Source: Blautia sp. HCP3S3_G3
Lineage (GTDB): Bacteria; Bacillota; Clostridia; Lachnospirales; Lachnospiraceae
DNA: 64,000 bases
NCBI RefSeq assembly: GCF_052063365.1
Contig: NZ_JBQHXR010000008.1
Coordinates: 1-64,000 of the forward strand
Direction of reading: 5' to 3'
The position numbers and the translations under genes are program-made. This document shows positions 2 through 16,672 of the stretch, piece after piece; position 1 is the stretch's first letter, and every line of letters begins with the position of its first letter. Below the pieces are notes generated by a model. It saw nothing but the letters and a program-made list of their open reading frames with translations. It was not told the origin of the DNA and made no database searches.

Positions 2-506
2 ATCCGGGTTGTACTTGACAGTGGGGTTACAGAATATCTGGCCACTAATGTAATGGATTCTGATTTATATCCGGAAATGTTTAAAGAACTGTACTTTCTC
101 AGATGGAAAACCGATTGAATCTAAATACAATGAGCTGAAAAACCAGCTTGAAATGGAAGAATTCTCAGGTGCAACTCCTGTCTCAATAGAACAGGAATTC
201 TATATCAATATGTTCTATTCTAATCTCTGCGCAATCGTTAAGAATGATGCTGATGAGAAAATAGCTGCATCTTCCAGACAGGACAATCAATACAGATATC
301 AGGCAAACCGGTCCTTTATTATCGGCAGGGTGAAATGTCTGACTACACGGTTACTTTGCGGTGAATTCCAACGCAGTGTAATATTCACTCTGTTCCGCTC
401 TGCTGCCAGACACCGGTCTCAGATACAGCCCGGACGCAGTTATGTCCGCAAGAAGAAAAAGGATAATCTGAGAACTCATTTCAATCATAGAAAATCAGCA
501 TTATAA
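2..506 (+). pseudogene. IS4-family (DDE_Tnp_1) transposase, C-terminal fragment, frameshifted and cut by the window edge
   Basis: One frame reads ...LYFLRWK and the +1 frame continues IESKYNELKNQL...EQEF...NLCAIV, which is the IS4 Y-x2-R-x3-E-x6-K C-terminal signature. The frameshift is at an A-run near position 112. The ORF ends at 506. Confidence 0.5.
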
Positions 507-804
507 GGATGTTCCTTTTCTTTCGCATACAAAATCTCATGAAAGGTGGTGATGCCCGGGCCTCCCTGTCAGAATTCCTAATATTTGTATGCACGATCAT
601 TCCTGCAGGTCAAAAGAATGTTCAAAGCTGGCGCATTTTGCATCTTTTAGTACTTGCCGGTATGGCATCATCTATTTTCAGGCTACCACTGCGCCCATAA
701 AACCAAAAGCAGCCAGATGCACTCTGGGGAATTCGAGTGTACACGCTATAAAAAATTTTGAAGCCGTATTTTCTGAATTTATCATTCTGTCAAATTACTT
801 AAGT

Positions 805-838
805 TGACCACATTGGTGCCTGTCACCAATGTGGTCAG
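805..838. repeat. Perfect 13-bp inverted repeat (gaccacattggtg-cctgtc-caccaatgtggtc). Candidate terminator or IS-end hairpin.
   Basis: Palindrome read directly from the sequence. Confidence 0.5.
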
Positions 839-1166
839 TAAATGTACGTGGTTCCTTTGATTTTTTTACGAGTTATCCCAGCTGAATCAGATGGTATTTT
901 TACTTTAAAATCGAGATACATGGCGCTCACCTTTCGAGAGTTAATTACTTCCCCTTTGTTCTACCATATTTACTCAATTTTTCAAGCAAAATCGCAGTAT
1001 TTTCAATGAAATCAAGGGATTTTTACCATCTTCATTGCCTTTTCTGACACAAACGAGAGTTAATTATTATGGAAGTTCACACAGAAGAGGTGCAACCAAT
1101 TGGCTGCACCTCCATGTTCTTGATTGTTTTTGTGGGTACTTGTATCTGCGAAATATTAAATTTCCG

Positions 1167-1203
1167 CTTGACATTAACCTATATTGGTGGTAAATGTATA
1201 GAT
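1167..1203 (+). promoter_or_regulatory. Putative sigma-A promoter (TTGACA, 17 bp, TAAATG) upstream of the 1245 gene. RBS GGAGGCGG at 1226.
   Basis: -35/-10-like hexamers with 17-bp spacing. A GGAGG RBS lies 8 nt before the ATG. Confidence 0.35.
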
Positions 1204-1244
1204 GCAGTTAATCACCAATTTGGATTATTTGGAGGCGGACTCAA

Positions 1245-2087
1245 ATGAGCTTGTATCGCACAATAATTCCCAAGTATACATTTATTCCATATGACTTTCC
1301 TACTTCTAGAGATGGAAAATATCATTGTCTGCTTGATGATGGGCAGATTTTGAGGTCTAGAAGGGAACAACTCGGTCTATCAGTTTATCAGGTTGCTGAA
1401 ATGGCGGGTATACAATTCAGTCAATATCAGCGTCTTGAATCAGGGGAACGTTTCTTTTCCGGATGTTCTATGAAAATTGGACTCTCTGTGTGTGCCGTTC
1501 TTTTGCTTGACCCTTTTGAGTTCTTCGACGTCAATGTTAAACAGCCAAAACCGGATATCATGATGCCACATGAGGTTTTTGACGGACTCCAAGATGAAAT
1601 GCCACGCCCCAAAAAAGTTGGTAGAAAGCCTATTAGGAGGGACATTATGACTGTATACTTTAATCACCCATCTTTTTCAATCATCATCCCCCGCGAAGTA
1701 TTAGTGGCTCTCGGCAAGCCCGCATATATCCAAATGATGTGGAATCTTAACGAAAAACGGCTTCTGCTTCATGTTATAGATTCTGACGCAGAGCAAGCAT
1801 TTGATATTCCACCTCATCTTTACGATAGTTGTACCGCTCTTGCTTTTCCTCGTGCTGCTATATTTTCAGAGCTAAAAGAAGGACTTGGGTGGGATACCGA
1901 GCTTTATGCAGCGGAATGTCGGATTGTCTATGATAAAACCAATGAACTTTTTATTCTCTGCGATTTAAACACCGCACAAAAATCCGAAAAAATAGTGGGA
2001 CCTTTTGCTATTCCGACATGCATTGATGATGGCATGGATGATGACGAAATCTTAGATGAGGATGGTGAAGAAAATGAAGAGCTATAA
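1245..2087 (+). CDS. DNA-binding protein: N-terminal XRE-type HTH, central AbrB/MazE-like swapped-hairpin-like segment, acidic C-terminal tail
   Basis: LRSRREQLGLSVYQVAEMAGIQFSQYQRLESGER is an HTH_3 pattern. SIIIPREVLVALGKPAYIQMMW resembles an AbrB-type hairpin. The C-terminus is DDGMDDDEILDEDGEENEEL. Confidence 0.45.
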   Translation: MSLYRTIIPKYTFIPYDFPTSRDGKYHCLLDDGQILRSRREQLGLSVYQVAEMAGIQFSQYQRLESGERFFSGCSMKIGLSVCAVLLLDPFEFFDVNVKQPKPDIMMPHEVFDGLQDEMPRPKKVGRKPIRRDIMTVYFNHPSFSIIIPREVLVALGKPAYIQMMWNLNEKRLLLHVIDSDAEQAFDIPPHLYDSCTALAFPRAAIFSELKEGLGWDTELYAAECRIVYDKTNELFILCDLNTAQKSEKIVGPFAIPTCIDDGMDDDEILDEDGEENEEL

Positions 2088-3522
2088 AGTGACAGTCCCG
2101 AATCGTCATAATCTCCCGCAGTCATTTGGTGTGAATGAATACGATGATCATATTAAACTGAGTGCCTATCTATCCAATAACATAAATAGTGTAGATATCC
2201 CTACGCAGATATCCGAGAAGCCGGTGACGGTAGTCGGAGCCGACTGTTTCTTCAATCATGGAGAAATCACAGAAATCAGTTTCCCGGATACTCTGACCAA
2301 TATAGAGACACAGGCTTTTGCTATGTGCAAGGGGATCAAGGAATTGATTCTTCCCGGCAGCATCAAAGAGATTGAAAGTTATGCATTTCGTGACTGTACG
2401 GGCCTGAAGAAGATTATTCTTCCTTCCAGTCTTAAAACATTGAAGCAAGGAACATTTGCGTTTACCTATTTACCGGATGATGTAAAGATTACTTTAAACG
2501 AGGGGCTCGAAACTATTCAATCCAAAGTTTTCTCCGGAGGAGGGGTTAATTTAGGCTTCACTGTAAAGCTGCCGTCTACTGTCAAACAGTTGGCTGACGA
2601 CGCCTTTGATCCTGGAATTAGGGTAATCCGCATTAACTATGATAAGCACATTCCTCTACAACATTCTGTAAAAGCCGCACAGGTTATACGAGAAGCTATA
2701 TCTGAGAGTGATCTGAATGACCACATTGATACAAGCATCGATTTGCTCCGTAGAATTAAGCAAGAGCATAACTTAGGTCTTTTGACTGATCACGAATGCG
2801 AAAAGCTTTTCTATGAGGAGTTTTGCAAAGGCTTTTTCGAATATCTAAAAAGCAAAAGACTTAAAGCCAAAATATGCGATAACAATTGGAACCTGTTCAT
2901 AAAAGATTACAACCTTTGGAGAGAAGGAAACACTACTCCATCCAACGCGAATGAGTCGTGGCTATTCTATGTCGATTCTGAGCCAGCCAGCCAGACAGAC
3001 AAAACATGCTTTTTCAAATTGATGGAGTCTTATTCTGTTCCTCTTGCATACTTCAAGCCTATTTCCGATAACTGCGTTTTTCCAAGTCTTCACTACGATG
3101 TGTATGGGACGTATATGGCAGGGACGGTCAAGTTTGAATTAATTGATGATAGTGGCCTGTACACATGTAATAATCCGATAGACAAGCAATTTGTTTTAAC
3201 CGATAAGACCGGCCTGAAAGCGTATATAGCTGTAAATAGACCTGCTAAAAAAGATGAACTACATAATCTTATGACTACTGCGTTTATCGGAACCGGTACG
3301 ATTGATGGATATACAAGTTCTCGAGCCCGTGAGATTTACATCTCCATTAAGGAACAACAAACAGTATGGTTTTGGTTTGTTGTTGGGAGCGATGATCTTG
3401 ATGTCCTCCATCACTTTCCACTTTGGGATTCCTACAACGCTTTTGAAACAGAGCGGCAGGAGAAAATACATGAGCACATTCTTAATCTAATGTATCGAAT
3501 CGATAATGAAAGCCATGAATGA
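2074..3522 (+). CDS. Cytoplasmic leucine-rich-repeat (BspA-type LRR) protein with a ~300-aa C-terminal domain of unknown function
   Basis: Repeated ...I.LP.S...I...AF..C..L..I motifs (ISFPDTLTNIETQAFAMCKGIKELILPGSIKEIESYAFRDCTGLKKIILPSSLKTL). No signal peptide. It overlaps the upstream gene, so the two are probably translationally coupled. Confidence 0.5.
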   Translation: MKSYKVTVPNRHNLPQSFGVNEYDDHIKLSAYLSNNINSVDIPTQISEKPVTVVGADCFFNHGEITEISFPDTLTNIETQAFAMCKGIKELILPGSIKEIESYAFRDCTGLKKIILPSSLKTLKQGTFAFTYLPDDVKITLNEGLETIQSKVFSGGGVNLGFTVKLPSTVKQLADDAFDPGIRVIRINYDKHIPLQHSVKAAQVIREAISESDLNDHIDTSIDLLRRIKQEHNLGLLTDHECEKLFYEEFCKGFFEYLKSKRLKAKICDNNWNLFIKDYNLWREGNTTPSNANESWLFYVDSEPASQTDKTCFFKLMESYSVPLAYFKPISDNCVFPSLHYDVYGTYMAGTVKFELIDDSGLYTCNNPIDKQFVLTDKTGLKAYIAVNRPAKKDELHNLMTTAFIGTGTIDGYTSSRAREIYISIKEQQTVWFWFVVGSDDLDVLHHFPLWDSYNAFETERQEKIHEHILNLMYRIDNESHE

Positions 3523-3537
3523 AACGGAGGACGAAGA

Positions 3538-3855
3538 ATGTACAGATTTGACTACTCTTTGGACGATTATCTCCGTGTAACCGATAATTGCGCCAATCAC
3601 GTTAAAATGCTCCTCCAGACCCGCTATGATGAACTGGAGCATATTCGTGAAGCTATCAATGATCGTTATCCATTCGAAGATCTGTTTCTGAAACAAGCCG
3701 AAGTGGATGATGAAAAATTTCTAATTCACAGACTTTTGGAATATTTGGATTCATGCGTTCTTGAGCGAAGGGAATTCCGAAGGGAAATGTTTTCAGATGC
3801 CGCAGGAAGTGCAACTGGTACAACAGATGATAGCGGATCAAGAGAGTCAGTCTGA
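3538..3855 (+). CDS. Hypothetical 105-aa protein, third gene of the plus-strand operon
   Basis: RBS GGAGGACGAAGAATG. No recognisable motifs. Confidence 0.4.
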   Translation: MYRFDYSLDDYLRVTDNCANHVKMLLQTRYDELEHIREAINDRYPFEDLFLKQAEVDDEKFLIHRLLEYLDSCVLERREFRREMFSDAAGSATGTTDDSGSRESV

Positions 3856-4458
3856 AAGCCACTTTTCTTTGTCCTCATCTGTTAAGTGGCTTGAAAAATT
3901 GCACGTATTTCTCGATTCTCCATAATCATTTATCATGGGCTCTTGATAAATGTTTCGACCAGCAATTACCTCCCACAGAGTAAGCAACACTTCTTTCTTG
4001 CATTTTCCTCCCAGATTTCGAATGCGAGAAAGTGGGCCAAACTCCAATATATCACGAACTGTGTGTATTCCAGCACGTTTCAAGCAATTTGTGCTACGAA
4101 CGCTCATGTCCAGTTCCTCCACAGTCATACTCATTACGTTTTGATCGACCTCAAAAATAACCCCTTCAATGCTATCTCTAAACTCCATAATCTGACACGC
4201 CATTTCCTGCTGCCTTGACTTTACAATATCACGGAAATTCGGGCAATACTTGTTTAGCCAGGCTTCGGACTCTTCCTGCGTTTCACATTGTTCAAAATCA
4301 TCCAGGTCCTCTTGATCAACATTTTTACTGAGGTCCCTACCTACATTCACCTCGAGTTCTTTCCGGACGATGTCCGAGAAGAGTTTTCCCTCTTCAACGG
4401 TCTCAAAACGGATTCCATGCCGCTCAAGTTCCTTTTGGTCGAATTCATATTTGTTCAA
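3847..4458 (-). CDS. Hypothetical protein with a C-terminal RNA polymerase alpha-subunit CTD-like helix-hairpin-helix domain (alphaCTD-like, residues ~108-165)
   Basis: [30 protein letters not shown]...[12 protein letters not shown] is near-identical to bacterial RpoA CTD (e.g. B. subtilis [24 protein letters not shown]...VRNLGRKSLEEV). The N-terminal 105 aa are unrelated to RpoA. Confidence 0.5.
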   Translation of the reverse strand: [203 protein letters not shown]

Positions 4459-4473
4459 TAGATTCTCCTCCTA

Positions 4474-6759
4474 TCAAATTGATTTTTTTAATTCCTGCCT
4501 GCGGACGGACCACTCTTCAAGGAATGCTGGTATCACTAGGTGAGAGCGTTCTTCCATAATCTTTTGAGGATTGTTCAGAAGATTCAGGATTTCTGAAGAG
4601 GTCAGCGCGCGCAAATCCATGTAGGGCTTTACAAGTCGTTCGATGCTGCTCTGTTCAATGTAAGCTGCAACAGCTTCGCCATCTTTCTGCATCTTCGGCT
4701 TATCAATCGTTAAAGTGAACGGAGCTGTTTGTCGCCCATCTACGCTCAATGTAGTTATGGCATTGAAAGCATCAAGTCTCGCCAAATTCACTTTCATATT
4801 TGGATCGTCAAAACGAACTGCTGCCGTATGTGCATCTCTGGGAGAAAGACGAAAAGCGCTGAAGTTCGCAGAATTTGACTCCAGAGCATCACGAATTTCA
4901 GCCGTCAGTTGACCCGTATGCTGATGACATAGCACCATAGCCAACCCGAACTTTCTAGACTCCGCCAGCATTCTTGGCATAGGATTCGTTTGGAACAAAG
5001 CTGCCTCATCTACCACCACAAAGTGCGTTTTGTCCCGTTCATGCCGAGCCATGGCAGCATTCCATAGCTTCATAAGTAGAAGCGTTCCAACAATCCGAGC
5101 TGCGTGAGTACCGATATTGGGAGATGCCAAATCAATCAGCGTTACCGTATCGGTATCGATTGAATTCGTGAAGTCTAAGGCATTTGCCCCAGCCCCTAGA
5201 GTCTTACGTAGCTGCTCTACAGAGATAAGCCTTTGAAACTTGCACAAATACCAATTGAGCGTTGCCTGAAAATCATTGCTTTTGTCTGTGCCATATTCCT
5301 GCTTAATAGTCTCCACAAGCTCAGGGTAGCGGTTGACGATTGCTTTACTTACTTTCAACATATTATCCTGGCTCTGGGAAATAACAGCAATGCTCTCCAA
5401 AGAAGCTCTTCTGCCGAGGAAGGCAATTGACGCCTTAGCAAATGTTGAGAACCACCGTTCCCAGCGTGGTCCGACGAAACATTCTCCCGGAGGGTTGAAA
5501 ATATCTCCGAAGAGCTCGCATAGATCGCTAATATTCCGTTCTTCCTTGGACGGATCATCACTGTCCCAAATATTCAATGGTACCGGATGCTCTGCGTCAC
5601 CGATTCGGACAACGCGCACACGTTCAGCATACTGCTTTGGAATCATTCTGAGAAGCAAGTCAATAGTACTTCCGTGCGGATCAAAAAACGTCAGACCATG
5701 ACCCTTTTCGATTGCACTCAGAATGAGCTTCGTAAGGAGTGTGGATTTGCCCGTTCCGGTTTGCCCAACGATCTGATAATGGCGTTTTATATCTGTTTCA
5801 CCGATGGTAATCCTCCTACAAATACCTGCAGTATCGACTGCTTTGCCAATTTCGACTGCGCCATGGCTCTTAGTGTTCCGATGGCTTGCAGGTATCTTCT
5901 TTACGGGTTCTTCACAGACCTGAAGACCAATAGTTGTTTCATGGATTTCAGGTTCCATCATTAGAATTCTGGCTGCATAGTCGGGTAAGATCTGGGCCTC
6001 AAATAAAGGATTTCTCCAAATTTCTTCAGCTTTCTTGGTTTCAATATCACCGACATATCTACACTTAGCCCCTTGAACTGCCTCCTCCAATACTGTCTTT
6101 AAGCGAATAGAAGGAGAAGTAGGAAGAAGGAGGAGGACTCGCATTTTTACCGGTCTCCCTAGGTAGTCCCTAACTGAAATACCATCCACATCATAACTAT
6201 GCAGCGTGTTCTTGCGGCAGAAAGTCTGTTCCTCGTCTGTAGCCGGACCTACGACAACTCGCATGACGGCTCCAGTATCTCGCAGCACGCTGACGAGCTC
6301 AGCAAATATTTCGGAGTAATGTGTTGGCCATTTAGAAATGCTATCATCTTTAGTGGTAGGGGTTCCACAGTTAAAGCCAATAATCGCTCTTGTCTGTCCT
6401 GTCTCTGTTATAGGAAGATAGACCTCATATAGCTGTGTTAGACTAGAGACAGAGGTTTTCAAGACTCCCTTGACAGTTTTTCCGGTCTTTTCAGCACACC
6501 ATCTTAGTTCTTTCTCCGTAAATTCTTCTGAACCAAAGAGACTAAGAATCGCAAGACCCTTTGTTGGAATCTCAATCTGCCAGCCAACGAAGCTTTCTTC
6601 ATTCATGACAGATGCACACTTCACCATTCGGGAAGACATTCTCTCAGAAAGCAGCTTCTTTCCTTCACTCTTTATAAGGCTCTCCAAACGGACAGCGACT
6701 GCTGTGTTGTTGGGATAGTAATTACTCTTCATCTGTAGCACCTCCTTAGTAGGCTTCAC
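4474..6759 (-). CDS. Soluble HerA/VirB4/FtsK-clade P-loop ATPase (DUF87/AAA_10-like) with ~330-aa N-terminal domain of unknown function
   Basis: Walker A GQTGTGKST followed by FDPHGS (the HerA/T4CP DPxGE motif). Walker B HFVVVDEAALF. ESRKFGLAMVLCHQHTGQL matches the EGRKYG...Q sensor/arginine-finger motif of HerA/VirB4. No TM segments. Confidence 0.6.
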   Translation of the reverse strand: MKPTKEVLQMKSNYYPNNTAVAVRLESLIKSEGKKLLSERMSSRMVKCASVMNEESFVGWQIEIPTKGLAILSLFGSEEFTEKELRWCAEKTGKTVKGVLKTSVSSLTQLYEVYLPITETGQTRAIIGFNCGTPTTKDDSISKWPTHYSEIFAELVSVLRDTGAVMRVVVGPATDEEQTFCRKNTLHSYDVDGISVRDYLGRPVKMRVLLLLPTSPSIRLKTVLEEAVQGAKCRYVGDIETKKAEEIWRNPLFEAQILPDYAARILMMEPEIHETTIGLQVCEEPVKKIPASHRNTKSHGAVEIGKAVDTAGICRRITIGETDIKRHYQIVGQTGTGKSTLLTKLILSAIEKGHGLTFFDPHGSTIDLLLRMIPKQYAERVRVVRIGDAEHPVPLNIWDSDDPSKEERNISDLCELFGDIFNPPGECFVGPRWERWFSTFAKASIAFLGRRASLESIAVISQSQDNMLKVSKAIVNRYPELVETIKQEYGTDKSNDFQATLNWYLCKFQRLISVEQLRKTLGAGANALDFTNSIDTDTVTLIDLASPNIGTHAARIVGTLLLMKLWNAAMARHERDKTHFVVVDEAALFQTNPMPRMLAESRKFGLAMVLCHQHTGQLTAEIRDALESNSANFSAFRLSPRDAHTAAVRFDDPNMKVNLARLDAFNAITTLSVDGRQTAPFTLTIDKPKMQKDGEAVAAYIEQSSIERLVKPYMDLRALTSSEILNLLNNPQKIMEERSHLVIPAFLEEWSVRRQELKKSI

Positions 6760-7042
6760 GTTCTAACATATAATCATTGATAACGGACACGAGATGTTTA
6801 GTCACTTCATAAAGTCCAGAGGATCCCGTTCTACCAACATGGAAGCAGCCAAGGGAGGCCGGGGTCCAGCGACGAACATCATCTATTGCTACTCCGTCTT
6901 TAAGGAGATCATATAGCAACCCGTTATGTCTATGATATATGAGATATTCACGCTGGCCGGAGAAATCGAGATAGATATTGAATCCGTCTCTGTTTCCATT
7001 GTTAACTGCGCACACTCTAATGTTTCTGTTATTTTTCTTCAT
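6746..7042 (-). CDS. Hypothetical 98-aa protein, first gene of the minus-strand 3-gene operon. Its 3-prime end overlaps the ATPase gene start.
   Basis: ORF with a 14-bp overlap to the downstream ATPase gene. No motifs recognised. Confidence 0.4.
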   Translation of the reverse strand: MKKNNRNIRVCAVNNGNRDGFNIYLDFSGQREYLIYHRHNGLLYDLLKDGVAIDDVRRWTPASLGCFHVGRTGSSGLYEVTKHLVSVINDYMLEREAY

Positions 7043-7237
7043 TTACTGATACCTCCACATCACAGGACTTCGTTTTTCTCCTATTCATTAAACGTAGCCT
7101 GCTAATGTTTATCGTATTTGAAATATCATTTTTGCACGTGATGGCGGCGCCCCGACTGTCTTCAGCCGCAATCGGTCGCTGTTGCCGAACTCTACGCCCC
7201 GGCAACCGGGCGATGACCACAATATGAAATTGTCAAG

Positions 7238-7340
7238 GTGCAGGTGGAAAACAAAAAAGCCGATGCTCTGATAAACAACCAAATGGGTAGACTTTCCCTC
7301 CGGGAAATCATTTAGTCACTTATCAGAGCATCGGCTCTAA
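7238..7340 (-). terminator. Long hairpin (17-bp stem agccgatgctctgataa / ttatcagagcatcggct) followed on the minus strand by TTTTTTGTTTTCC. Candidate terminator for transcripts arriving from the CRISPR/IS side.
   Basis: Inverted repeat and T-tract read directly. The ~45-nt loop contains a mini-hairpin tttccc/gggaaa. Confidence 0.4.
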
Positions 7341-7435
7341 ACATTTTTAATTTGTGTTTAGACTATATCATAGGCTGGTGCTTTTGTCAACAGGTGAATT
7401 TAAAATCTGTTTTTCTCCTGTTAATCACGGTGATA

Positions 7436-7626
7436 AAATGTACAAAAATCACGCTCAAAAAATGTACAATCAACCTCCAATAAATTAGTATCAGTTTATT
7501 GGAGGAATAAGAATGATTGGAGATAAATGGTTGAGCATAAGAAACGACAGAAAAAAAAGAATGAGTTATTCCGAAATAGGCAGGAAATATAACATCGATC
7601 GCCGTACCGCAAAGGTAAGGTACAAC
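7436..7626 (+). mobile_element. IS21-like element left end (repeated TGTACAA motifs) plus N-terminal HTH fragment of an IstA-like transposase, truncated at a partial CRISPR repeat
   Basis: tgtacaaaaatcac ... aatgtacaatcaacc direct repeats, then GGAGG RBS and ATG at 7513 encoding MIGDKWLSIRNDRKKRMSYSEIGRKYNIDRRTAK (HTH, IstA-like). The reading frame runs into the half repeat aaaggtaaggtacaac at 7611. Confidence 0.35.
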
Positions 7627-7821
7627 ATGAGCGGTTGATCGGTTCGAAGAATCGTGACTGGGAGTGTCAATTCCTCATAGGTAAGGTACAACTTTCCAGT
7701 CAATCTAAACGCGCCTTCAAGAAAGGTGTGTCAATTCCTCATAGGTAAGGTACAACGAAGCCCATAAGCGCTTCACTTCCGACGACGCAATCGTGTCAAT
7801 TCCTCATAGGTAAGGTACAAC
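7611..7821 (-). CRISPR. CRISPR array 1: one partial (16-bp) repeat plus three full 29-bp repeats GTGTCAATTCCTCATAGGTAAGGTACAAC, written on the plus strand. Spacers are 37, 35 and 36 bp. Transcribed on the minus strand.
   Basis: Exact repeats at 7664-7692, 7728-7756 and 7793-7821. The conserved leader abuts the 7821 end. The reverse complement GTTGTACCTTACCTATGAGGAATTGACAC resembles clostridial type I-B repeats (GTTGAACCTTAAC...). Confidence 0.9.
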
Positions 7822-8215
7822 AACAGTATTTTTGCTGTCTTCCCATTTATATTACCTCTTTTTTCCTCTGCTTACAAGCATTTTCTCCCAAAAAGTCGGT
7901 CAATCTCCTTTTCATCACACCCTACAAATGCCTAAATTTAAAGCTTTCCTATTATTTGCAAATAGAGGTCTGAGGTTGACCGACTTTTTCCTTCTTTCAA
8001 TTCCCTTTTTCTATATATTTTGCTCGATTTTTATAAAAAATCATCCCTTCCAAATAAATCCAATCTTCCCTCAAGCCTTGTTTTTCAAGCATTCGAAGCA
8101 CCTTTTAACTCTATATGAGGTTGACCGACTTTTTCCACACATTGTGTTCAGGAAATCGAAAATAGAAATATGTAATCTGAAAATAATATGAAATAAAGCC
8201 TAATTGTATTGTAAT
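7822..8215 (-). promoter_or_regulatory. CRISPR leader 1 (~390 bp, AT-rich). It contains three copies of a TTGACCGACTTTTT motif.
   Basis: ~95% identical to 9746-10115, which flanks array 2 on the same side. Motif copies at 7890-7903 (inverted), 7971-7990 and 8117-8136. Confidence 0.6.
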
Positions 8216-8267: not shown

Positions 8268-8894
8268 TCAGAAAATCTGACCTTCGAGTTTTAGTTTTTC
8301 TTTAGCAGGAAACTCTTTATCGAATTCTTCTGCTTTTTCTTCGTCCACAAAGTAGCATTCGGGTGGAGCGTACTCGCCGGTAATGCCATCAAGATAGCCT
8401 TCCTCCAACTCTTTACAGAGGAAGAACGATGCATCTGCGCCCTCGGGCAGTCCGTGGTACCGAATGCCGAATTTGCTTGCGTAATCAAAGCCGCTTTTAC
8501 CGTAGAAATCGATATTTCCCTCAAAGCAAAGCGCTTTGATGCCAAATTCTTTTGCGCGTTCTAAAGAATAATCCAGCAGTAATTTGCCGTAACCCTGTCG
8601 TTTCCATTCCGGCGCTATGCAAATCGGTCCCATTGCGGCAATGGGGATCTCCCTGCCGTCATCCGCCTTAATAACCGCTCGCACAAACACATTCTGTCCG
8701 ATGATTTTGCCGTCCTTTTCCAAAACGAACTTCAGTTCAGGAATGAAATCGGGGTAATTTCTCATTTGATTCAGAACATAATGCTCCAGACAGCCGGGAC
8801 GATAAACATTCCAAAATGCTTCTCTTACTAAATTCTCAACCTCTCGTTGTTCTTCTTTTCTTTCTAAACGAATTATAATGTCATTTTTATTCAT
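8268..8894 (-). CDS. GNAT family N-acetyltransferase
   Basis: Likely start MNKNDIIIRLERKEE with RBS AGGAGGAAAAACA. The acetyl-CoA-binding-type motif RQGYGKLLLDYSLERAKEFG (Q/RxxGxG/A) is present. The longer ORF-track start is probably spurious. Confidence 0.7.
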   Translation of the reverse strand: MNKNDIIIRLERKEEQREVENLVREAFWNVYRPGCLEHYVLNQMRNYPDFIPELKFVLEKDGKIIGQNVFVRAVIKADDGREIPIAAMGPICIAPEWKRQGYGKLLLDYSLERAKEFGIKALCFEGNIDFYGKSGFDYASKFGIRYHGLPEGADASFFLCKELEEGYLDGITGEYAPPECYFVDEEKAEEFDKEFPAKEKLKLEGQIF

Positions 8895-9115
8895 TGTTTT
8901 TCCTCCTGAAAATTGTTGACCGCAATATGGGAGGTTTGCGTGGAAATTGTATTTACGCCAACCTCCCGTCAGCGCACAATCTCCGGTTGCATGATTGTTT
9001 TCTTCAAAAAGCAATCTCCTTAAAATATTATTATAATCAAGCCTTTCGGCAGATTATCTGTGTATATACAAAATCAATTCGGGATCTGCACCGTTTTCGC
9101 TGTATGTGCAGATAA

Positions 9116-9144: not shown

Positions 9145-9305
9145 TTCGTAACATGAATGAACGCTAAATGCTACCTGAACACAATCTCCATGTATGGATC
9201 GGGATTTTAGCACAATATCCACCAAATCACCTAGTGGGATAGTGATTGCTGAATAGTTACAACATTACATACATTTAGAATATTTCCTCTTAATATTTGA
9301 ACTAC

Positions 9306-9745
9306 CTCATAGGTAAAGTATAACGTAATTCCGGCAATTGAAAATGCGTGGATTGTATAGTATCAATTCCTCATAGGTAAGGTACAACAATAGTTTCAAG
9401 AGCAAAAGATCAGCTGATCTCTCGTGTCAATTCCTCATAGGTAAGGTACAACATGCATTTTATCCCAGAAAGGACGGTGAAAAAGTATGACTAGTAAACA
9501 GTGTCAATTCCTCATAGGTAAGGTACAACTGGAACCGAAGGATCCGAATGCTGCTCCGCAGGGACAGGTGTGTCAATTCCTCATAGGTAAGGTACAACGT
9601 TTTTACTTCGAGCGTCGTGCGCTGATGATCGGTGGCGTGTCAATTCCTCATAGGTAAGGTACAACGGTTGAACCGAATTGCATTTATGTTCAAGCTCCAT
9701 ATTGAGTGTCAATTCCTCATAGGTAAGGTACAACAACAGTATTTC
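9306..9745 (-). CRISPR. CRISPR array 2: degenerate terminal repeat (9306-9335), one 1-mismatch repeat (9371-9399) and five exact 29-bp repeats. Spacers are 35, 35, 48, 40, 38 and 40 bp. Same repeat as array 1. Transcribed on the minus strand.
   Basis: Repeats at 9435-9463, 9512-9540, 9581-9609, 9648-9676 and 9717-9745. The degenerate repeats sit at the end opposite the conserved leader. Confidence 0.9.
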
Positions 9746-10115
9746 TGCTGTCTTCTCATTTATATTACCTCTTTTTTCCTCTGCTTACAAGCATTTTCTC
9801 CCAAAAAGTCGGTCAATCTCCTTTTCATCACACCCTACAAATGCCTAAATTTAAAGCTTTTCTATTATTTGCAAATAGAGATTTGAGGTTGACCGACTTT
9901 TTCCTTCTTTCAATTCCTTTTTTCTATATATTCTGCTCGATTTTTATAAAAAATCATCCTTTCCAAATAAATCCAATCTTCCCTCAAACCTTGTTTTTCA
10001 AGCATTCGAAGCACCTTTCTACTTTAAATGAGGTTGACCGACTTTTTCCACACATTGTGTTCAGGGATTGAAAATAAAAATATGCAATCTTAAAATAATG
10101 TGAAACAAGGGAACA
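9746..10115 (-). promoter_or_regulatory. CRISPR leader 2, near-identical to leader 1, with the same three TTGACCGACTTTTT motif copies
   Basis: Motif copies at 9803-9816 (inverted), 9885-9904 and 10031-10050. Similarity to leader 1 is lost after ~10115. Confidence 0.6.
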
Positions 10116-13381: not shown

Positions 13382-16300
13382 TCAGGCGTCTCCTATTCGT
13401 TCGAACAATACCTTTTCTCCGTTTTCTTCCACACAGAGCATGCCATCTTCCGTCAATGTAAGAGTCTGGTTATCAATATGACCGATTCCGTTCTCGAATG
13501 TCCATGGGGCCTCCTTAACCTCTCCATTGTCCGTAATCTGTACGGTACCGTCTGCATTCAGTGTCATCTGCATTACCATGCCTAAATCAGCCAGATTTAA
13601 TTCCATATCTTCTGCTACAATTTTTACTGCATTCCATACACCTGTGAAAGAAGCCATATCTCCTCCCGCATCTGCACTTGGAGTCTGTCCCTCAGAAGAC
13701 GTTTCTTTCTCTTCATCCGGTGTTTCCTGAACGGCATCCTGTTTCTCTGTGCCTGCGTCAGGTTTCTCTGCTTTCTTCGCCGGTACCATACTGCTGTCAT
13801 ATGTCACATCATACGGGGACATGAGTTCTATTACATTCGGTTTTTCAGGATCCAAAACCGTGCAGTCTTCTTTTATTACGTGACTTTCATCCGCAACCGG
13901 TCCCAGATTTCCTTTTTCCCAGACACTGTAGAACGCTCCGAAGGCTTCATCTGATGCGGAAGCCGGAAGCTTCATAACAAGATCTGCAGCACAGTCTCCG
14001 GAGCAGCTATCCAGAGTATCAAACACTTCTGCATCGGTAAACTCAAAGCAGATGACAGACAGTGAAGTACAACCATAGAAAGCGCTGGCGGAGAAGCTTT
14101 CCACACCGTCACGAACATGGATTTCCTTCAGGTTTGTACATTCTCTGAAAGCAGTGGCGCCAATTTGTTTTGCATTGACTACCAACGATTCCATACCACA
14201 GCCTCTGAAGCAGTCTTCACCCACATAGTCTGTTTTTCCTTTGTACCATGCCTGAGTAAGTGAGCTGCAGCCATCAAATAAATAGTTGTCAAGCATTTTC
14301 GTTCCGTTTACAAAGACCACCGTTTTCAGTGACCGGTTGTTATAGAAAGTGCCTCTTCCGGTATTTTCAAGCGGTCCGTAACAGATCACCGTTTCAAGCT
14401 GCTGACAGTACTCAAAGGCAGAGTCTTCGATGTCTGTTACTGTTTCCGGAATCACAAGGGAACGAAGATGCAGCCAGTCATCCTGATTTGTATCCATTTC
14501 TGTATCTGTGTAATCACGGGCACATTCAAATGCATTCCTTGCGATCTTCTTTACTTCGACACCGCCGATCGTGCGCGGAATGACAACGTCGATATCTGTT
14601 CCGGTATACCCGGTGACGGTTCCTGTTTCCGCATCAAAGTCGAAATATTCTTCTGATGCAGGAATAAACGGCATTTTTGCAAACGCACTTTCTTCACTTT
14701 CACGTACGAGGGCATCATACCACGGATAATCCAGAACATCATTCCATGCGGCAAGCTGCTCATCTGTCGCATAATCACTCATTCGGATACCTTCAAGCCC
14801 GATTCCGGACAGTGCTTCCACATTTACTTCAAGATCTGCAGGAATCACCAGACTTGTGATCTGGGTTCCTTCAAAAGCACAGGCTCCGATCGAAGTAACA
14901 GATTCCGAAAGCGTTATTGCTTCCAGATTCTGACAATTTTTAAAGGCTCCGGCTCCGATTGTCGTAACAGAATCAGGAATCTTTATCTCTTTTAGATTCT
15001 GACAATTTTCAAAGGCTCCGGCTCCGATTGTAGTGACCGAATCAGGAATCTTTATCTCGTTCAGATTCTGACAATTACGGAATGCTCCATCTCCAATGGT
15101 TGTTACGGAATCAAACAGATCGACAGTTTCCACTACACTGTCTGCAAATGCTTCACTGCCGATATAAGTAAATACATCATTATACGGAACGGAAAAATAT
15201 TTTACCGTCTGATTGCCCTTAAATGCACCATCTGCCAGACCCGTCACCGGTTTATACTCGGAGCCGTCAACACTGTATTCGTCATATGGACGGATATTTG
15301 TCATTTCACCAGTGTAGCCTGTCATATAAAAGGATGCTCCGTCAGGACTTTCAATATAAGTGTCAAGATTATTGTCGCAATACTGAACATCCGGATTCTG
15401 GTTGCGCCATACGCGGCAGCTGAGTCCCAGATTATCTACGATCTGCTGAACATCCAGCATTTCCTGCTTCGTACATTTGGTATTCAGATCAATATTCGCG
15501 AGTAATGTGCATTCTGCAAATGCAGACTCCGCAATATACGGAAGCTCTGCTGCATCGATATAGACATAGCTTATGCTGCAGGATGCAAAAGCATTTTCTC
15601 CGATATACTTTACAGTAGAAGGCATATAAACCCTGTTCATCCACTGACAATTATAAAAAGCATTGTCACCAATATTGGTCAAACCTTCCGGCAGATTGAG
15701 TGAACCCTCAACAGCCGCATAAACAAATGCTTCATCTCCTATATATTCAAGACCTTCCGGAAGTTCCAGTGCAAACCCTCTGTAAGAATGGCAAAAAGCA
15801 CGATCCCCTACACTTTTCAGTGTAGATGGAATTTTTACATACAGCAGTGTCGCTGCGTCCATAAATGCTTCATCTTCAATTGTTGTCAGTCCTTCCGGAA
15901 GTGTTACATAGCAAAGATAACGATTTCCCTGAAAAGCATTGGGTCCGATGGAAGTGACCGGAACCCCGTCAATTGCTTCCGGTACATCCAGTCTTCCGGA
16001 AAAACCACTGTATTGGGTGATTGTGCCGGTTGCTGCGTCAAATGTGATATTTTCAAGGTCAGAGACCGGTTCCTGTCTGACTGCATTCTGGCCGCTTGAC
16101 TGTACACTTAACATGCTGCCGGCCGCTTCAAGAGCTGCAGTATAGGCTTCTACCTGGTCATCCGGAACATAGGCAACCGCATCCTGCGCAAGTTCTGTAA
16201 ATGCACCCGGAGCAATTACCGGACATTCGCCCTCGAACGTTACGGAAGTAATTCCGCTACAGAAACCGAACGCTCCTTTGTCAATATAGCATACTCCGGA

Positions 16301-16672
16301 TGGTATGATAATTTCTGTAAGTGCAGGATCACTGGCAAAACAATTCTGTCCGATAACAAGAAGGCTCTGCGGAAGAGAGACACTTGAAAGTGAACTGCAC
16401 CATCCTCCCGCGCTGTTTTCCAGTTGTTTCACTGTTTCCGGAAATGTAATGGATGTAATACTATCCACCCCGTTAAATGCATCTGATCCGATAATATCAA
16501 CCGTACATCCCTGGATGGTATCGGGTATCACGACGTCTCCGCCTGCACCGCTGTATCCGTCCAGTGTATAATCGACAGTATCAAATGACCATACAGATTC
16601 ATCCTCCGCCTGAACTGATACACTCAGCATTATCACCAGCAGGATCATCGGTATCCATAATTGTTTTTTCAT
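13382..16672 (-). CDS. Large secreted cell-surface protein with BspA-type leucine-rich repeats
   Basis: Signal peptide MKKQLWIPMILLVIMLSVSVQA. Many IPDSVTTIGAGAFENCQNLKEIKIP-type 23-aa repeats. Confidence 0.6.
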   Translation of the reverse strand: MKKQLWIPMILLVIMLSVSVQAEDESVWSFDTVDYTLDGYSGAGGDVVIPDTIQGCTVDIIGSDAFNGVDSITSITFPETVKQLENSAGGWCSSLSSVSLPQSLLVIGQNCFASDPALTEIIIPSGVCYIDKGAFGFCSGITSVTFEGECPVIAPGAFTELAQDAVAYVPDDQVEAYTAALEAAGSMLSVQSSGQNAVRQEPVSDLENITFDAATGTITQYSGFSGRLDVPEAIDGVPVTSIGPNAFQGNRYLCYVTLPEGLTTIEDEAFMDAATLLYVKIPSTLKSVGDRAFCHSYRGFALELPEGLEYIGDEAFVYAAVEGSLNLPEGLTNIGDNAFYNCQWMNRVYMPSTVKYIGENAFASCSISYVYIDAAELPYIAESAFAECTLLANIDLNTKCTKQEMLDVQQIVDNLGLSCRVWRNQNPDVQYCDNNLDTYIESPDGASFYMTGYTGEMTNIRPYDEYSVDGSEYKPVTGLADGAFKGNQTVKYFSVPYNDVFTYIGSEAFADSVVETVDLFDSVTTIGDGAFRNCQNLNEIKIPDSVTTIGAGAFENCQNLKEIKIPDSVTTIGAGAFKNCQNLEAITLSESVTSIGACAFEGTQITSLVIPADLEVNVEALSGIGLEGIRMSDYATDEQLAAWNDVLDYPWYDALVRESEESAFAKMPFIPASEEYFDFDAETGTVTGYTGTDIDVVIPRTIGGVEVKKIARNAFECARDYTDTEMDTNQDDWLHLRSLVIPETVTDIEDSAFEYCQQLETVICYGPLENTGRGTFYNNRSLKTVVFVNGTKMLDNYLFDGCSSLTQAWYKGKTDYVGEDCFRGCGMESLVVNAKQIGATAFRECTNLKEIHVRDGVESFSASAFYGCTSLSVICFEFTDAEVFDTLDSCSGDCAADLVMKLPASASDEAFGAFYSVWEKGNLGPVADESHVIKEDCTVLDPEKPNVIELMSPYDVTYDSSMVPAKKAEKPDAGTEKQDAVQETPDEEKETSSEGQTPSADAGGDMASFTGVWNAVKIVAEDMELNLADLGMVMQMTLNADGTVQITDNGEVKEAPWTFENGIGHIDNQTLTLTEDGMLCVEENGEKVLFERIGDA
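14880..15120. repeat. Near-perfect 69-bp tandem DNA repeats encoding LRR units inside the 1096-aa surface protein gene
   Basis: Consecutive ~69-bp units (ttctgacaattttcaaaggctccggctccgattgt...gaatcaggaatctttatctc) are almost identical. Confidence 0.7.

Follow-up and report, generated by a model that had tools for sequence, protein, structure and literature searches.

A DUF5663–alphaCTD protein as a candidate adaptor subunit of a soluble TrwB/DndH-like ATPase in Blautia

The stretch of DNA analysed here (64,000 nt from the start of contig NZ_JBQHXR010000008.1 of Blautia sp. HCP3S3_G3, hereafter the window) carries a gene for a protein of 203 amino acids (3847..4458, minus strand, stop codon included) in which a DUF5663 domain is joined to a copy of the C-terminal domain found in the alpha subunit of RNA polymerase (alphaCTD). 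The gene lies directly downstream of one encoding a soluble P-loop ATPase of 761 amino acids that belongs to the TrwB/VirD4–VirB4–DndH–HerA group (4474..6759, minus strand). Based on gene order and domain architecture at homologous loci, the 203-amino-acid protein is probably a dedicated adaptor subunit of this upstream ATPase, its alphaCTD serving to tether the ATPase, and the pair would form a module of mobile or defence islands composed of two genes, or of three if that for a 98-amino-acid protein at the head of the operon is included. The helical DUF5663 domain would dock on the aromatic C-terminal tail of the ATPase (WLxxW..RR) and the alphaCTD would hold the ATPase, presumably a hexamer, on A/T-rich DNA, promoters or transcription complexes. 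A role in conflict between mobile elements and their hosts, either in defence or in element maintenance, is the most likely one because a 6.3-kb cassette carries the module, which lies in variable islands that in several cases adjoin CRISPR-Cas loci.

Domain structure of the 203-amino-acid protein

The gene was taken from the open reading frame (ORF) list and assigned with Pfam. It starts with a TTG codon, separated by 15 nt from the ATPase stop codon (4474–4476), and an AGGAGG Shine-Dalgarno sequence is readable inside this gap (4467–4472, minus strand), 8 nt upstream of the start. The product comprises an acidic helical DUF5663 domain (residues 1–104; 4147..4458), the alphaCTD with two helix-hairpin-helix motifs (residues 105–165; 3964..4146) and an acidic C-terminal tail (residues 166–203; 3850..3963), all on the minus strand; coordinates 3964–4137 correspond exactly to residues 108–165. 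DUF5663 was assigned by a match to PF18908 over residues 22–86 (35.5 bits against a gathering threshold of 23.7). The N-terminal 105 amino acids contain 28 D/E against 14 K/R (pI 4.4), in agreement with the initial annotation of this DNA, which had described them as acidic and unrelated to RpoA. An AlphaFold2 model built from a 37-sequence family alignment has a mean predicted local distance difference test score (pLDDT) of 88.7 and a predicted template modelling score of 0.77 and is confident to about residue 165; the tail is of low confidence (pLDDT ~50) and unconserved in the family alignment. No convincing structural neighbour of the helical DUF5663 model was found in the PDB.

The alphaCTD is matched by PF03118 (RNA_pol_A_CTD) over residues 105–161 (E = 9.1e-16; 57.8 bits against a gathering cut-off of 23.8), with the match spanning profile positions 7–65 of 67. 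This is well above the cut-off and identifies a complete domain, not just a generic helix-hairpin-helix motif; the modelled domain is compact, with the two motifs in place, and superposes at 0.9 Å on the Bacillus subtilis domain crystallised with Spx. By BLASTP it is identical to a Clostridiales RpoA (P0024) at 30 of 53 residues, with a 2-residue gap in the loop joining the two hairpins, and at 20 of the 24 residues of the core, which bears out both the near-canonical character and the roughly 20 of 24 matches to Firmicutes RpoA that had first been read from the sequence. Scans against Pfam and NCBIfam found no amino-terminal domain of the alpha subunit (alpha-NTD; PF01000/PF01193) upstream of the alphaCTD, and the NCBIfam RpoA models match with only their C-terminal ~60 positions and with scores far under their cut-offs; the protein is, as proposed initially, not an in-frame fragment of a duplicated rpoA. 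A pseudogenised rpoA duplicate was likewise rejected, the N-terminal 104 residues being DUF5663 with no RpoA homology upstream.

The alphaCTD call is already present in RefSeq and Pfam; the novelty is in the ATPase–partner context. The exact 203-amino-acid protein is RefSeq WP_441060111.1, named 'DNA-directed RNA polymerase subunit alpha C-terminal domain-containing protein [Blautia ...]'; the 90% cluster under this entry has 288 members, and the protein is indexed in 220 assembly blocks.

Pairing of the ATPase with DUF5663 partners

The ATPase contains the Pfam domains DUF87/HerA-central and TrwB_AAD_bind, and so has the TrwB-like combination of a nucleotide-binding domain with an all-alpha domain. 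Its Walker A motif is intact and invariant among homologues, and no membrane segment was predicted (maximum Kyte-Doolittle mean over 19 residues, 1.24). Matches to PADLOC profiles are partial, weak and placed around the P-loop (mad8, 8.6e-13; HerA, 2.9e-8; DndH, 1.2e-7), those in PHROGs and NCBIfam are only partial or unnamed, and the best structural neighbour of the ATPase model (pLDDT 66) is the defence protein DptH/DndH. The first gene of the operon, identified from the ORF list, encodes a basic protein of 98 amino acids (6746..7042, minus strand) with no family match in Pfam, PADLOC, NCBIfam and PHROGs scans. It overlaps the ATPase start by 14 nt, so that with the 15-nt gap and its AGGAGG further downstream the 98-amino-acid protein, ATPase and alphaCTD genes are translationally coupled.

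Conservation of this arrangement was assessed with the ATPase as seed, which gave 25 genome and 47 metagenome loci, and with further loci from look-ups of the exact protein. Loci were scored with a hidden Markov model (HMM) of the partner family and the ATPases were grouped into 49 lineages at 90% identity, about 38 of which were informative, the remainder being cut by contig ends. A separate DUF5663 gene is found directly downstream of the ATPase gene, on the same strand and within a few tens of nucleotides, in 25 of the ~38 informative lineages; an alphaCTD is present in about 17 of these 25 partners and the rest have DUF5663 only, DUF5663 remaining the neighbour of the ATPase even where the alphaCTD is absent. 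In three lineages (L027/L075, L031 and L076) the ATPase itself carries a fused alphaCTD at its C-terminus, with no DUF5663 (PF03118 at 60.1 bits over residues 744–795 of 828 in L076). The ATPase homologue P0250 of lineage L041 (67% identical) ends in a PcrA_UvrD_tudor domain (32.5 bits against a cut-off of 23.9), a fusion that occurs once among 120 close ATPase homologues.

The pairing crosses phyla, being seen across Lachnospiraceae, Oscillospiraceae and a Rhodococcus plasmid; in the latter case, Rhodococcus ruber pYYL1.1, a DUF87 ATPase (33% identity) is followed by an annotated DUF5663 domain-containing protein. The same gene order was obtained at loci seeded independently from distant partner homologues (22–33% identity), and unbiased clustering of neighbours returned as recurrent near the ATPase only the partner, the 98-amino-acid protein gene (directly upstream in 6 lineages) and BspA-type leucine-rich repeat (LRR) proteins (5 lineages). 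Protein P0272 (926 amino acids), a candidate ATPase–DUF5663–alphaCTD fusion, was set aside as tentative, being recognised by the family HMM only (E = 4.8e-5) with no Pfam support. An ATPase sub-clade (L018/L019, 4727–7975; L059, L062 and L071) ends in ...LLNEGAxRW[KR]K and has no DUF5663 partner; the L018 ATPase is followed by a SNF2/DrmD-like helicase of 1082 amino acids, which may be an alternative partner.

A tail motif that covaries with the partner

The proposed docking peptide for DUF5663 is the tail motif F746-L-E-E-W750-S-V-R-R754 of the ATPase (4498..4524, minus strand), with family consensus WLxxWxxRR. It lies within the last ~15 residues, and close ATPase homologues hardly vary at L747 and W750. 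Searching for the pattern [FWLM][LMIV]xxW within the last 60 residues, which has a background of 0.5% per 60-amino-acid window, found the motif in 23 of the 25 lineages that have DUF5663 on a protein of its own and in 0 of 10 that were partnerless or fused to an alphaCTD or Tudor domain (Fisher's exact test, 3.6e-7, an optimistic value as lineages are not phylogenetically independent). The Rhodococcus ATPase tail also has the motif (SFLDDWLARRQQ). This is the pattern expected if DUF5663 binds the tail and is superfluous once an address domain has been fused to the ATPase.

A comparable arrangement is known from conjugation, where the C-terminal tail of F-plasmid TraD is bound by the DNA-binding accessory protein TraM. 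Common to both is a TrwB/TraD-type ATPase tail together with a small protein that has a helical docking domain and a DNA-binding domain. DUF5663 is unrelated in sequence, however, the window protein uses an alphaCTD where TraM has a ribbon-helix-helix, and we infer the window interaction from co-occurrence; moreover, the window ATPase is soluble and has no relaxase or type IV secretion system (T4SS) gene nearby. DNA-address modules on ring translocases are also known, in the form of the gamma domain of FtsK/SpoIIIE and the winged helix-turn-helix of Streptomyces TraB. The fused lineages (L027, L031 and L076) share with these a small C-terminal DNA-binding domain on an ATPase of the FtsK–HerA type, with helix-hairpin-helix motifs in place of a winged helix, whereas the module in the window would act in trans via DUF5663. 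On this view the pair would be an FtsK–HerA ring ATPase with a separable address subunit, for which an alphaCTD as address domain, DUF5663 as adaptor and a tail motif covarying with the partner would be new.

Known defence systems built on related ATPases differ in their partners. Sir2–HerA (Nezha) and HerA–DUF4297 pair HerA with an effector, whereas no nuclease, Sir2 or other effector partner was found at the window ATPase; compared with the HerA systems in PADLOC there is no full-length HMM match and no NurA, Sir2 or DUF4297, the neighbours being the DUF5663–alphaCTD and 98-amino-acid proteins. DptF/DptG (DndF/G) of the DndFGH/Dpt systems are also absent beside the window ATPase.

The soluble TrwB/DndH/HerA-type ATPases of gut and rumen Clostridia, a widespread and diverse family, have a fixed partner domain in DUF5663, and should the adaptor model be correct, DUF5663 would acquire a testable function as an adaptor binding the aromatic ATPase tail. 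The model would also offer a means of directing a ring ATPase to promoters or transcription complexes. The genes are a candidate for a new accessory or defence-island module, linked now and then to CRISPR loci of types III and VI. Should the protein turn out to do no more than tether a mobile-element ATPase to DNA, this would be a modest extension of the FtsK-gamma and TraD–TraM theme.

Tethering subunit or free decoy

The initial annotation had offered two kinds of role for a free-standing alphaCTD, docking of the partner ATPase to promoters or RNA polymerase (RNAP), and a decoy. Gene order, the three alphaCTD fusions and the Tudor domain in one lineage make docking the favoured option. As a decoy, the protein would act alone in solution, imitating the alphaCTD and drawing activators, Spx-like factors or UP elements away from host RNAP. 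The 57% identity to the Clostridiales RpoA domain and the close superposition on the Spx-crystallised structure are in its favour, as is the existence of small alphaCTD-only proteins in phages, but we consider it a very unlikely function of this protein: the gene is tightly coupled to that of the ATPase, three lineages carry the domain as a fusion on the ATPase itself, and the alphaCTD is absent altogether from about a third of partners. The 2-residue deletion in the inter-hairpin loop also counts against a decoy; in an alignment to the E. coli sequence it maps to the T285–E288 region, the activator-contact '287 determinant'. Furthermore, surface residues change quickly, the partner at about twice the pace of the ATPase (25–45% identity where ATPases are 55–67% identical), and the module was not found in the phage collections searched. 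A targeting role was preferred to a decoy because of the ATPase fusions, because alphaCTDs are reused with DNA-dependent ATPases and because the DNA-contact residues are kept in the window protein. R121, N124, C125, G150 and K152 correspond to the minor-groove contacts R265, N268, C269, G296 and K298 of the E. coli domain, C153 taking the position of S299, and E114, E115 and D117 keep the acidic character at the positions of the E. coli 261 determinant.

Several observations weigh against the tethering model. The ATPase is without a partner in about 10 lineages and the alphaCTD is missing from about a third of partners, for which reason the alphaCTD is, on this comparative evidence, dispensable for the core activity of the ATPase. 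Across 64 non-redundant partners, the RpoA contact positions are only moderately conserved (R265 in 59%, N268 in 45%, G296 in 31% and K298 in 28%), whereas the fold-determining positions L270, T277 and E302 are conserved at 81–94%; judged from this alignment, DNA binding of the UP-element type cannot be the universal role of the alphaCTD in the family. Docking of DUF5663 on the tail is deduced from co-occurrence in lineages that are not independent. The ATPase model is mediocre, with an N-terminal domain of ~290 amino acids to which no fold was assigned, and the RNAP-binding Tudor domain on P0250 points to RNAP, not DNA, as the target.

Relative to the domain in RpoA, the alphaCTD of the window protein is thus joined to DUF5663 instead of an alpha-NTD and genetically tied to an ATPase; its loop is 2 residues shorter, S299 is replaced by cysteine, and the contact residues are loosely conserved in its family.

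Origin and breadth of the family

Family members were collected by running HMMER exhaustively against 1.84 billion cluster representatives (2110 matches at E ≤ 1e-3), which was far more informative than a word-indexed profile search with the family alignment, as the latter returned few members. The top matches include dozens of DUF5663–alphaCTD proteins of 160–215 amino acids (22–49% identity), proteins of ~100 amino acids with DUF5663 only, and many non-RpoA proteins with 1–11 alphaCTD copies. The alphaCTD therein appears to be a reusable DNA-binding module that recurs beside other DNA-binding domains and DNA-dependent ATPases. Seven large non-RpoA proteins (P0058, P0065, P0066, P0070, P0072, P0086 and P0140) have 2–11 tandem alphaCTDs, the multi-copy proteins adding Sigma70_r4, Spo0A_C or SNF2/ResIII helicase domains, a little-noticed expansion of a repeat module.

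Recent capture from the host rpoA, which lies outside the window, was an option raised in the initial annotation and was rejected. In a collection of 5.8 billion proteins the best RpoA reaches 57% identity over 53 amino acids, the family consists of dozens of diverged lineages, and the 2-residue deletion is also common to distant lineages; diverged family members and the ATPase-fused alphaCTDs have the shorter loop (G-[DTP]-L...IRNLG), which is absent from RpoA. By these comparisons the 203-amino-acid gene is best described as an old paralogue.

The stand-alone alphaCTD noted at the outset is real, though it is not singular, since many non-RpoA proteins, including small phage proteins, have this domain. 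The phage proteins annotated as alphaCTD-containing resemble the window protein in being short, with an alphaCTD plus a small extra region, but they are without DUF5663 or a link to an ATPase, and Foldseek matches to them are weak (E ≥ 0.005) and confined to the alphaCTD part. A tblastn search with the ATPase gave no match in 50,697 phage records and none in IMG/VR, and a phage or prophage origin is therefore unlikely. A literature search on DUF5663, PF03118 architectures, alphaCTD-like proteins and DUF87 proteins with type III CRISPR returned nothing relevant.

The operon and its possible regulation

A near-consensus sigma-70-type promoter (TTGACA-17-TATAGT with TG; 7362..7390, minus strand; 11/12 in a consensus scan) is predicted upstream of the operon and is followed by a leader of ~320 nt, the 98-amino-acid protein gene, the ATPase gene and the alphaCTD gene. 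The leader (7043–7360, minus strand) contains an inverted repeat of 28 nt (7258–7285/7309–7336; 86% complementary), which may be a regulatory structure or a terminator or attenuator.

With such a leader, and with a DNA-binding domain in a small protein, the latter might do nothing more than regulate transcription of its own operon through the alphaCTD, without any role at the ATPase. We think this extremely improbable, given that the alphaCTD gene is the last in the operon, that in some lineages the alphaCTD is fused to the ATPase itself, that the tail motif covaries with the partner and that DUF5663-only partners have no recognisable DNA-binding domain.

The six-gene cassette

The operon and a convergent operon together form a conserved six-gene cassette of 6.27 kb (1142..7406). 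The convergent operon encodes an HTH_3 protein (1245–2087), a cytoplasmic BspA-type LRR_5 protein of 488 amino acids (2056–3522, plus strand), which has no signal peptide-like N-terminus and whose C-terminal ~300 amino acids are without assignment, and a 105-amino-acid ORF (3538–3855). By megablast, seven loci (L001, L003, L005–L008 and L014) contain the cassette at 99% identity, with end points unchanged and flanks that differ, and in metagenome assemblies it is typically a contig of ~7 kb, which suggests that it is a mobile or multi-copy unit. There is no recombinase gene within it. The flanks include transposases of the IS3 family of insertion sequences (IS; L001 and L003), a RepA_N/ParB gene (one copy) and an S24 repressor, and the ATPase of L092 adjoins AAA, WYL and S24 genes. 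A search of the plasmid collection found no near-identical DNA.

Two cassette copies (L014, from Coprococcus intestinihominis CLA-AA-H190, and L046) lack 154 nt corresponding to window positions 4307–4460. The loss removes the start of the alphaCTD gene and its first ~50 codons and leaves the ATPase intact, so that the partner is 5'-truncated in some strains. To the left of the cassette, a 117-amino-acid ORF (153–506, plus strand) may conceivably be the 3' part of an IS transposase gene, which would fit with contigs breaking just outside the left end of the cassette.

Mobility of the cassette, often IS-flanked and in one copy beside the RepA_N/ParB gene, raises the question of whether the ATPase could act as a type IV coupling protein, with the alphaCTD protein as a factor akin to relaxosome accessory proteins that presents cassette DNA to a helper conjugation system. 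Distant homologues on Bacillaceae plasmids (~25% identity), and only these, do belong to Tcp-like conjugation clusters, where a replication-relaxation protein is encoded directly downstream of them. We nevertheless give little credence to this possibility. No relaxase, integrase or T4SS genes are present in the cassette or recurrent near the examined ATPase lineages, and the ATPase shares with coupling proteins the TrwB-like domain but not, by prediction, their membrane anchor; one homologue is embedded in a cas operon, and the defence protein DptH/DndH is the best structural neighbour.

CRISPR surroundings and possible recruitment to RNA polymerase

Two CRISPR arrays lie beside the cassette in the window (7591–7822, 4 repeats; 9289–9735, 7 repeats; spacing 64–69 nt), with a repeat of ~29 nt (GTGTCAATTCCTCATAGGTAAGGTACAAC) that scores 30 bits against Rfam CRISPR-DR2, below the threshold of 37. 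Each array abuts one copy of a duplicated block of ~300 nt (7793–8092 and 9706–10005, 97%), and a GNAT acetyltransferase gene (8268..9014, minus strand) is located between the arrays. No cas genes were found among the ORFs scanned at 8–24 kb of the window, and neither the 64-kb window nor the other loci contain homologues of the Cas10/RAMP proteins of L041 or of Cas13a; most copies of this cassette have no array next to them.

At three loci outside the window the ATPase has CRISPR-Cas genes nearby. L041 (1–17300) is a type III CRISPR-Cas locus from Lachnospiraceae that comprises Cas6, Cas10, RAMPs, Csx19, reverse transcriptase (RT)-Cas1, Cas2 and two 14-repeat arrays. In it the Tudor-bearing ATPase homologue P0250 sits between the effector genes (Cas10, RAMPs and Csx19) and the array/RT-Cas1/Cas2 part, and the repeat is identical to that of the window over its first 18 nt. 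In L094 an ATPase plus DUF5663 lie 3.5 kb from RT, Cas2, Cas1 and Csm6 genes, and in L025 a Cas13a gene (337–5130; NCBIfam, 787 bits) with a 6–7-repeat array is 5 kb from a partnerless ATPase homologue. Two putative arrays, one of three repeats in L020/L061 and another in L078, were not counted as CRISPR. Most ATPase lineages show no cas genes; where long flanks are available, in ~30 lineages, CRISPR proximity is limited to about 4. Type III accessory genes usually encode a sensor domain for cyclic oligoadenylate, but a scan turned up no CARF/SAVED domain.

These loci bear on the nature of the target, which might be RNAP instead of naked DNA. In that case the alphaCTD would recruit the ATPase through its surface for sigma region 4, an activator or promoter-proximal UP DNA, with the Tudor domain as an equivalent. 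The DNA acted upon would be DNA under transcription, possibly that of an invader, and the module may work together with CRISPR types that are RNA-guided and transcription-dependent. An isolated alphaCTD is not known to bind core RNAP, which speaks against such recruitment, and the acidic residues kept at the 261-determinant positions speak for it. So do the presence of P0250 inside a type III cas operon, the 18 nt shared between the L041 and window repeats and the proximity of cas genes in L094 and L025. The Tudor domain of PcrA/UvrD is an RNAP-interaction domain (PMC5397179, PMC8318588); on P0250 it has the same C-terminal position as the fused alphaCTDs, which suggests an equivalent targeting role, although its fold is unrelated and it is absent from the window. 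Tudor domains, however, also have roles in DNA binding and dimerisation (PMC11912403), and there is but a single Tudor fusion; the few CRISPR-proximal lineages may reflect clustering in defence islands, and the array is missing beside most cassette copies. On balance we consider recruitment to RNAP unlikely, and retain tethering of the ATPase by its adaptor as the preferred model.

A bolder version, to which we assign a distinctly low probability, would see the ATPases as a transcription-coupled conflict machine, in which interchangeable C-terminal address modules (an alphaCTD in trans via DUF5663, a fused alphaCTD or the PcrA/UvrD Tudor) recruit a soluble TrwB/DndH-like ring ATPase to RNAP or promoters on foreign DNA, either alone or as an accessory of the transcription-dependent, RNA-guided CRISPR types III and VI. 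If true, the fast-evolving DUF5663–alphaCTD protein would serve as a subunit for specificity or sensing that was made out of a part of the host's own RNA polymerase.

In L025 and L094, two unrelated loci, the ATPase is flanked by truncated DNA_pol3_alpha (PHP/finger)-like proteins of 473–620 amino acids (L025, 12581–14443; L094, 5791–7212). Elsewhere in the window, a second BspA-type LRR_5 protein of 1096 amino acids is encoded at 13382–16672 on the minus strand.

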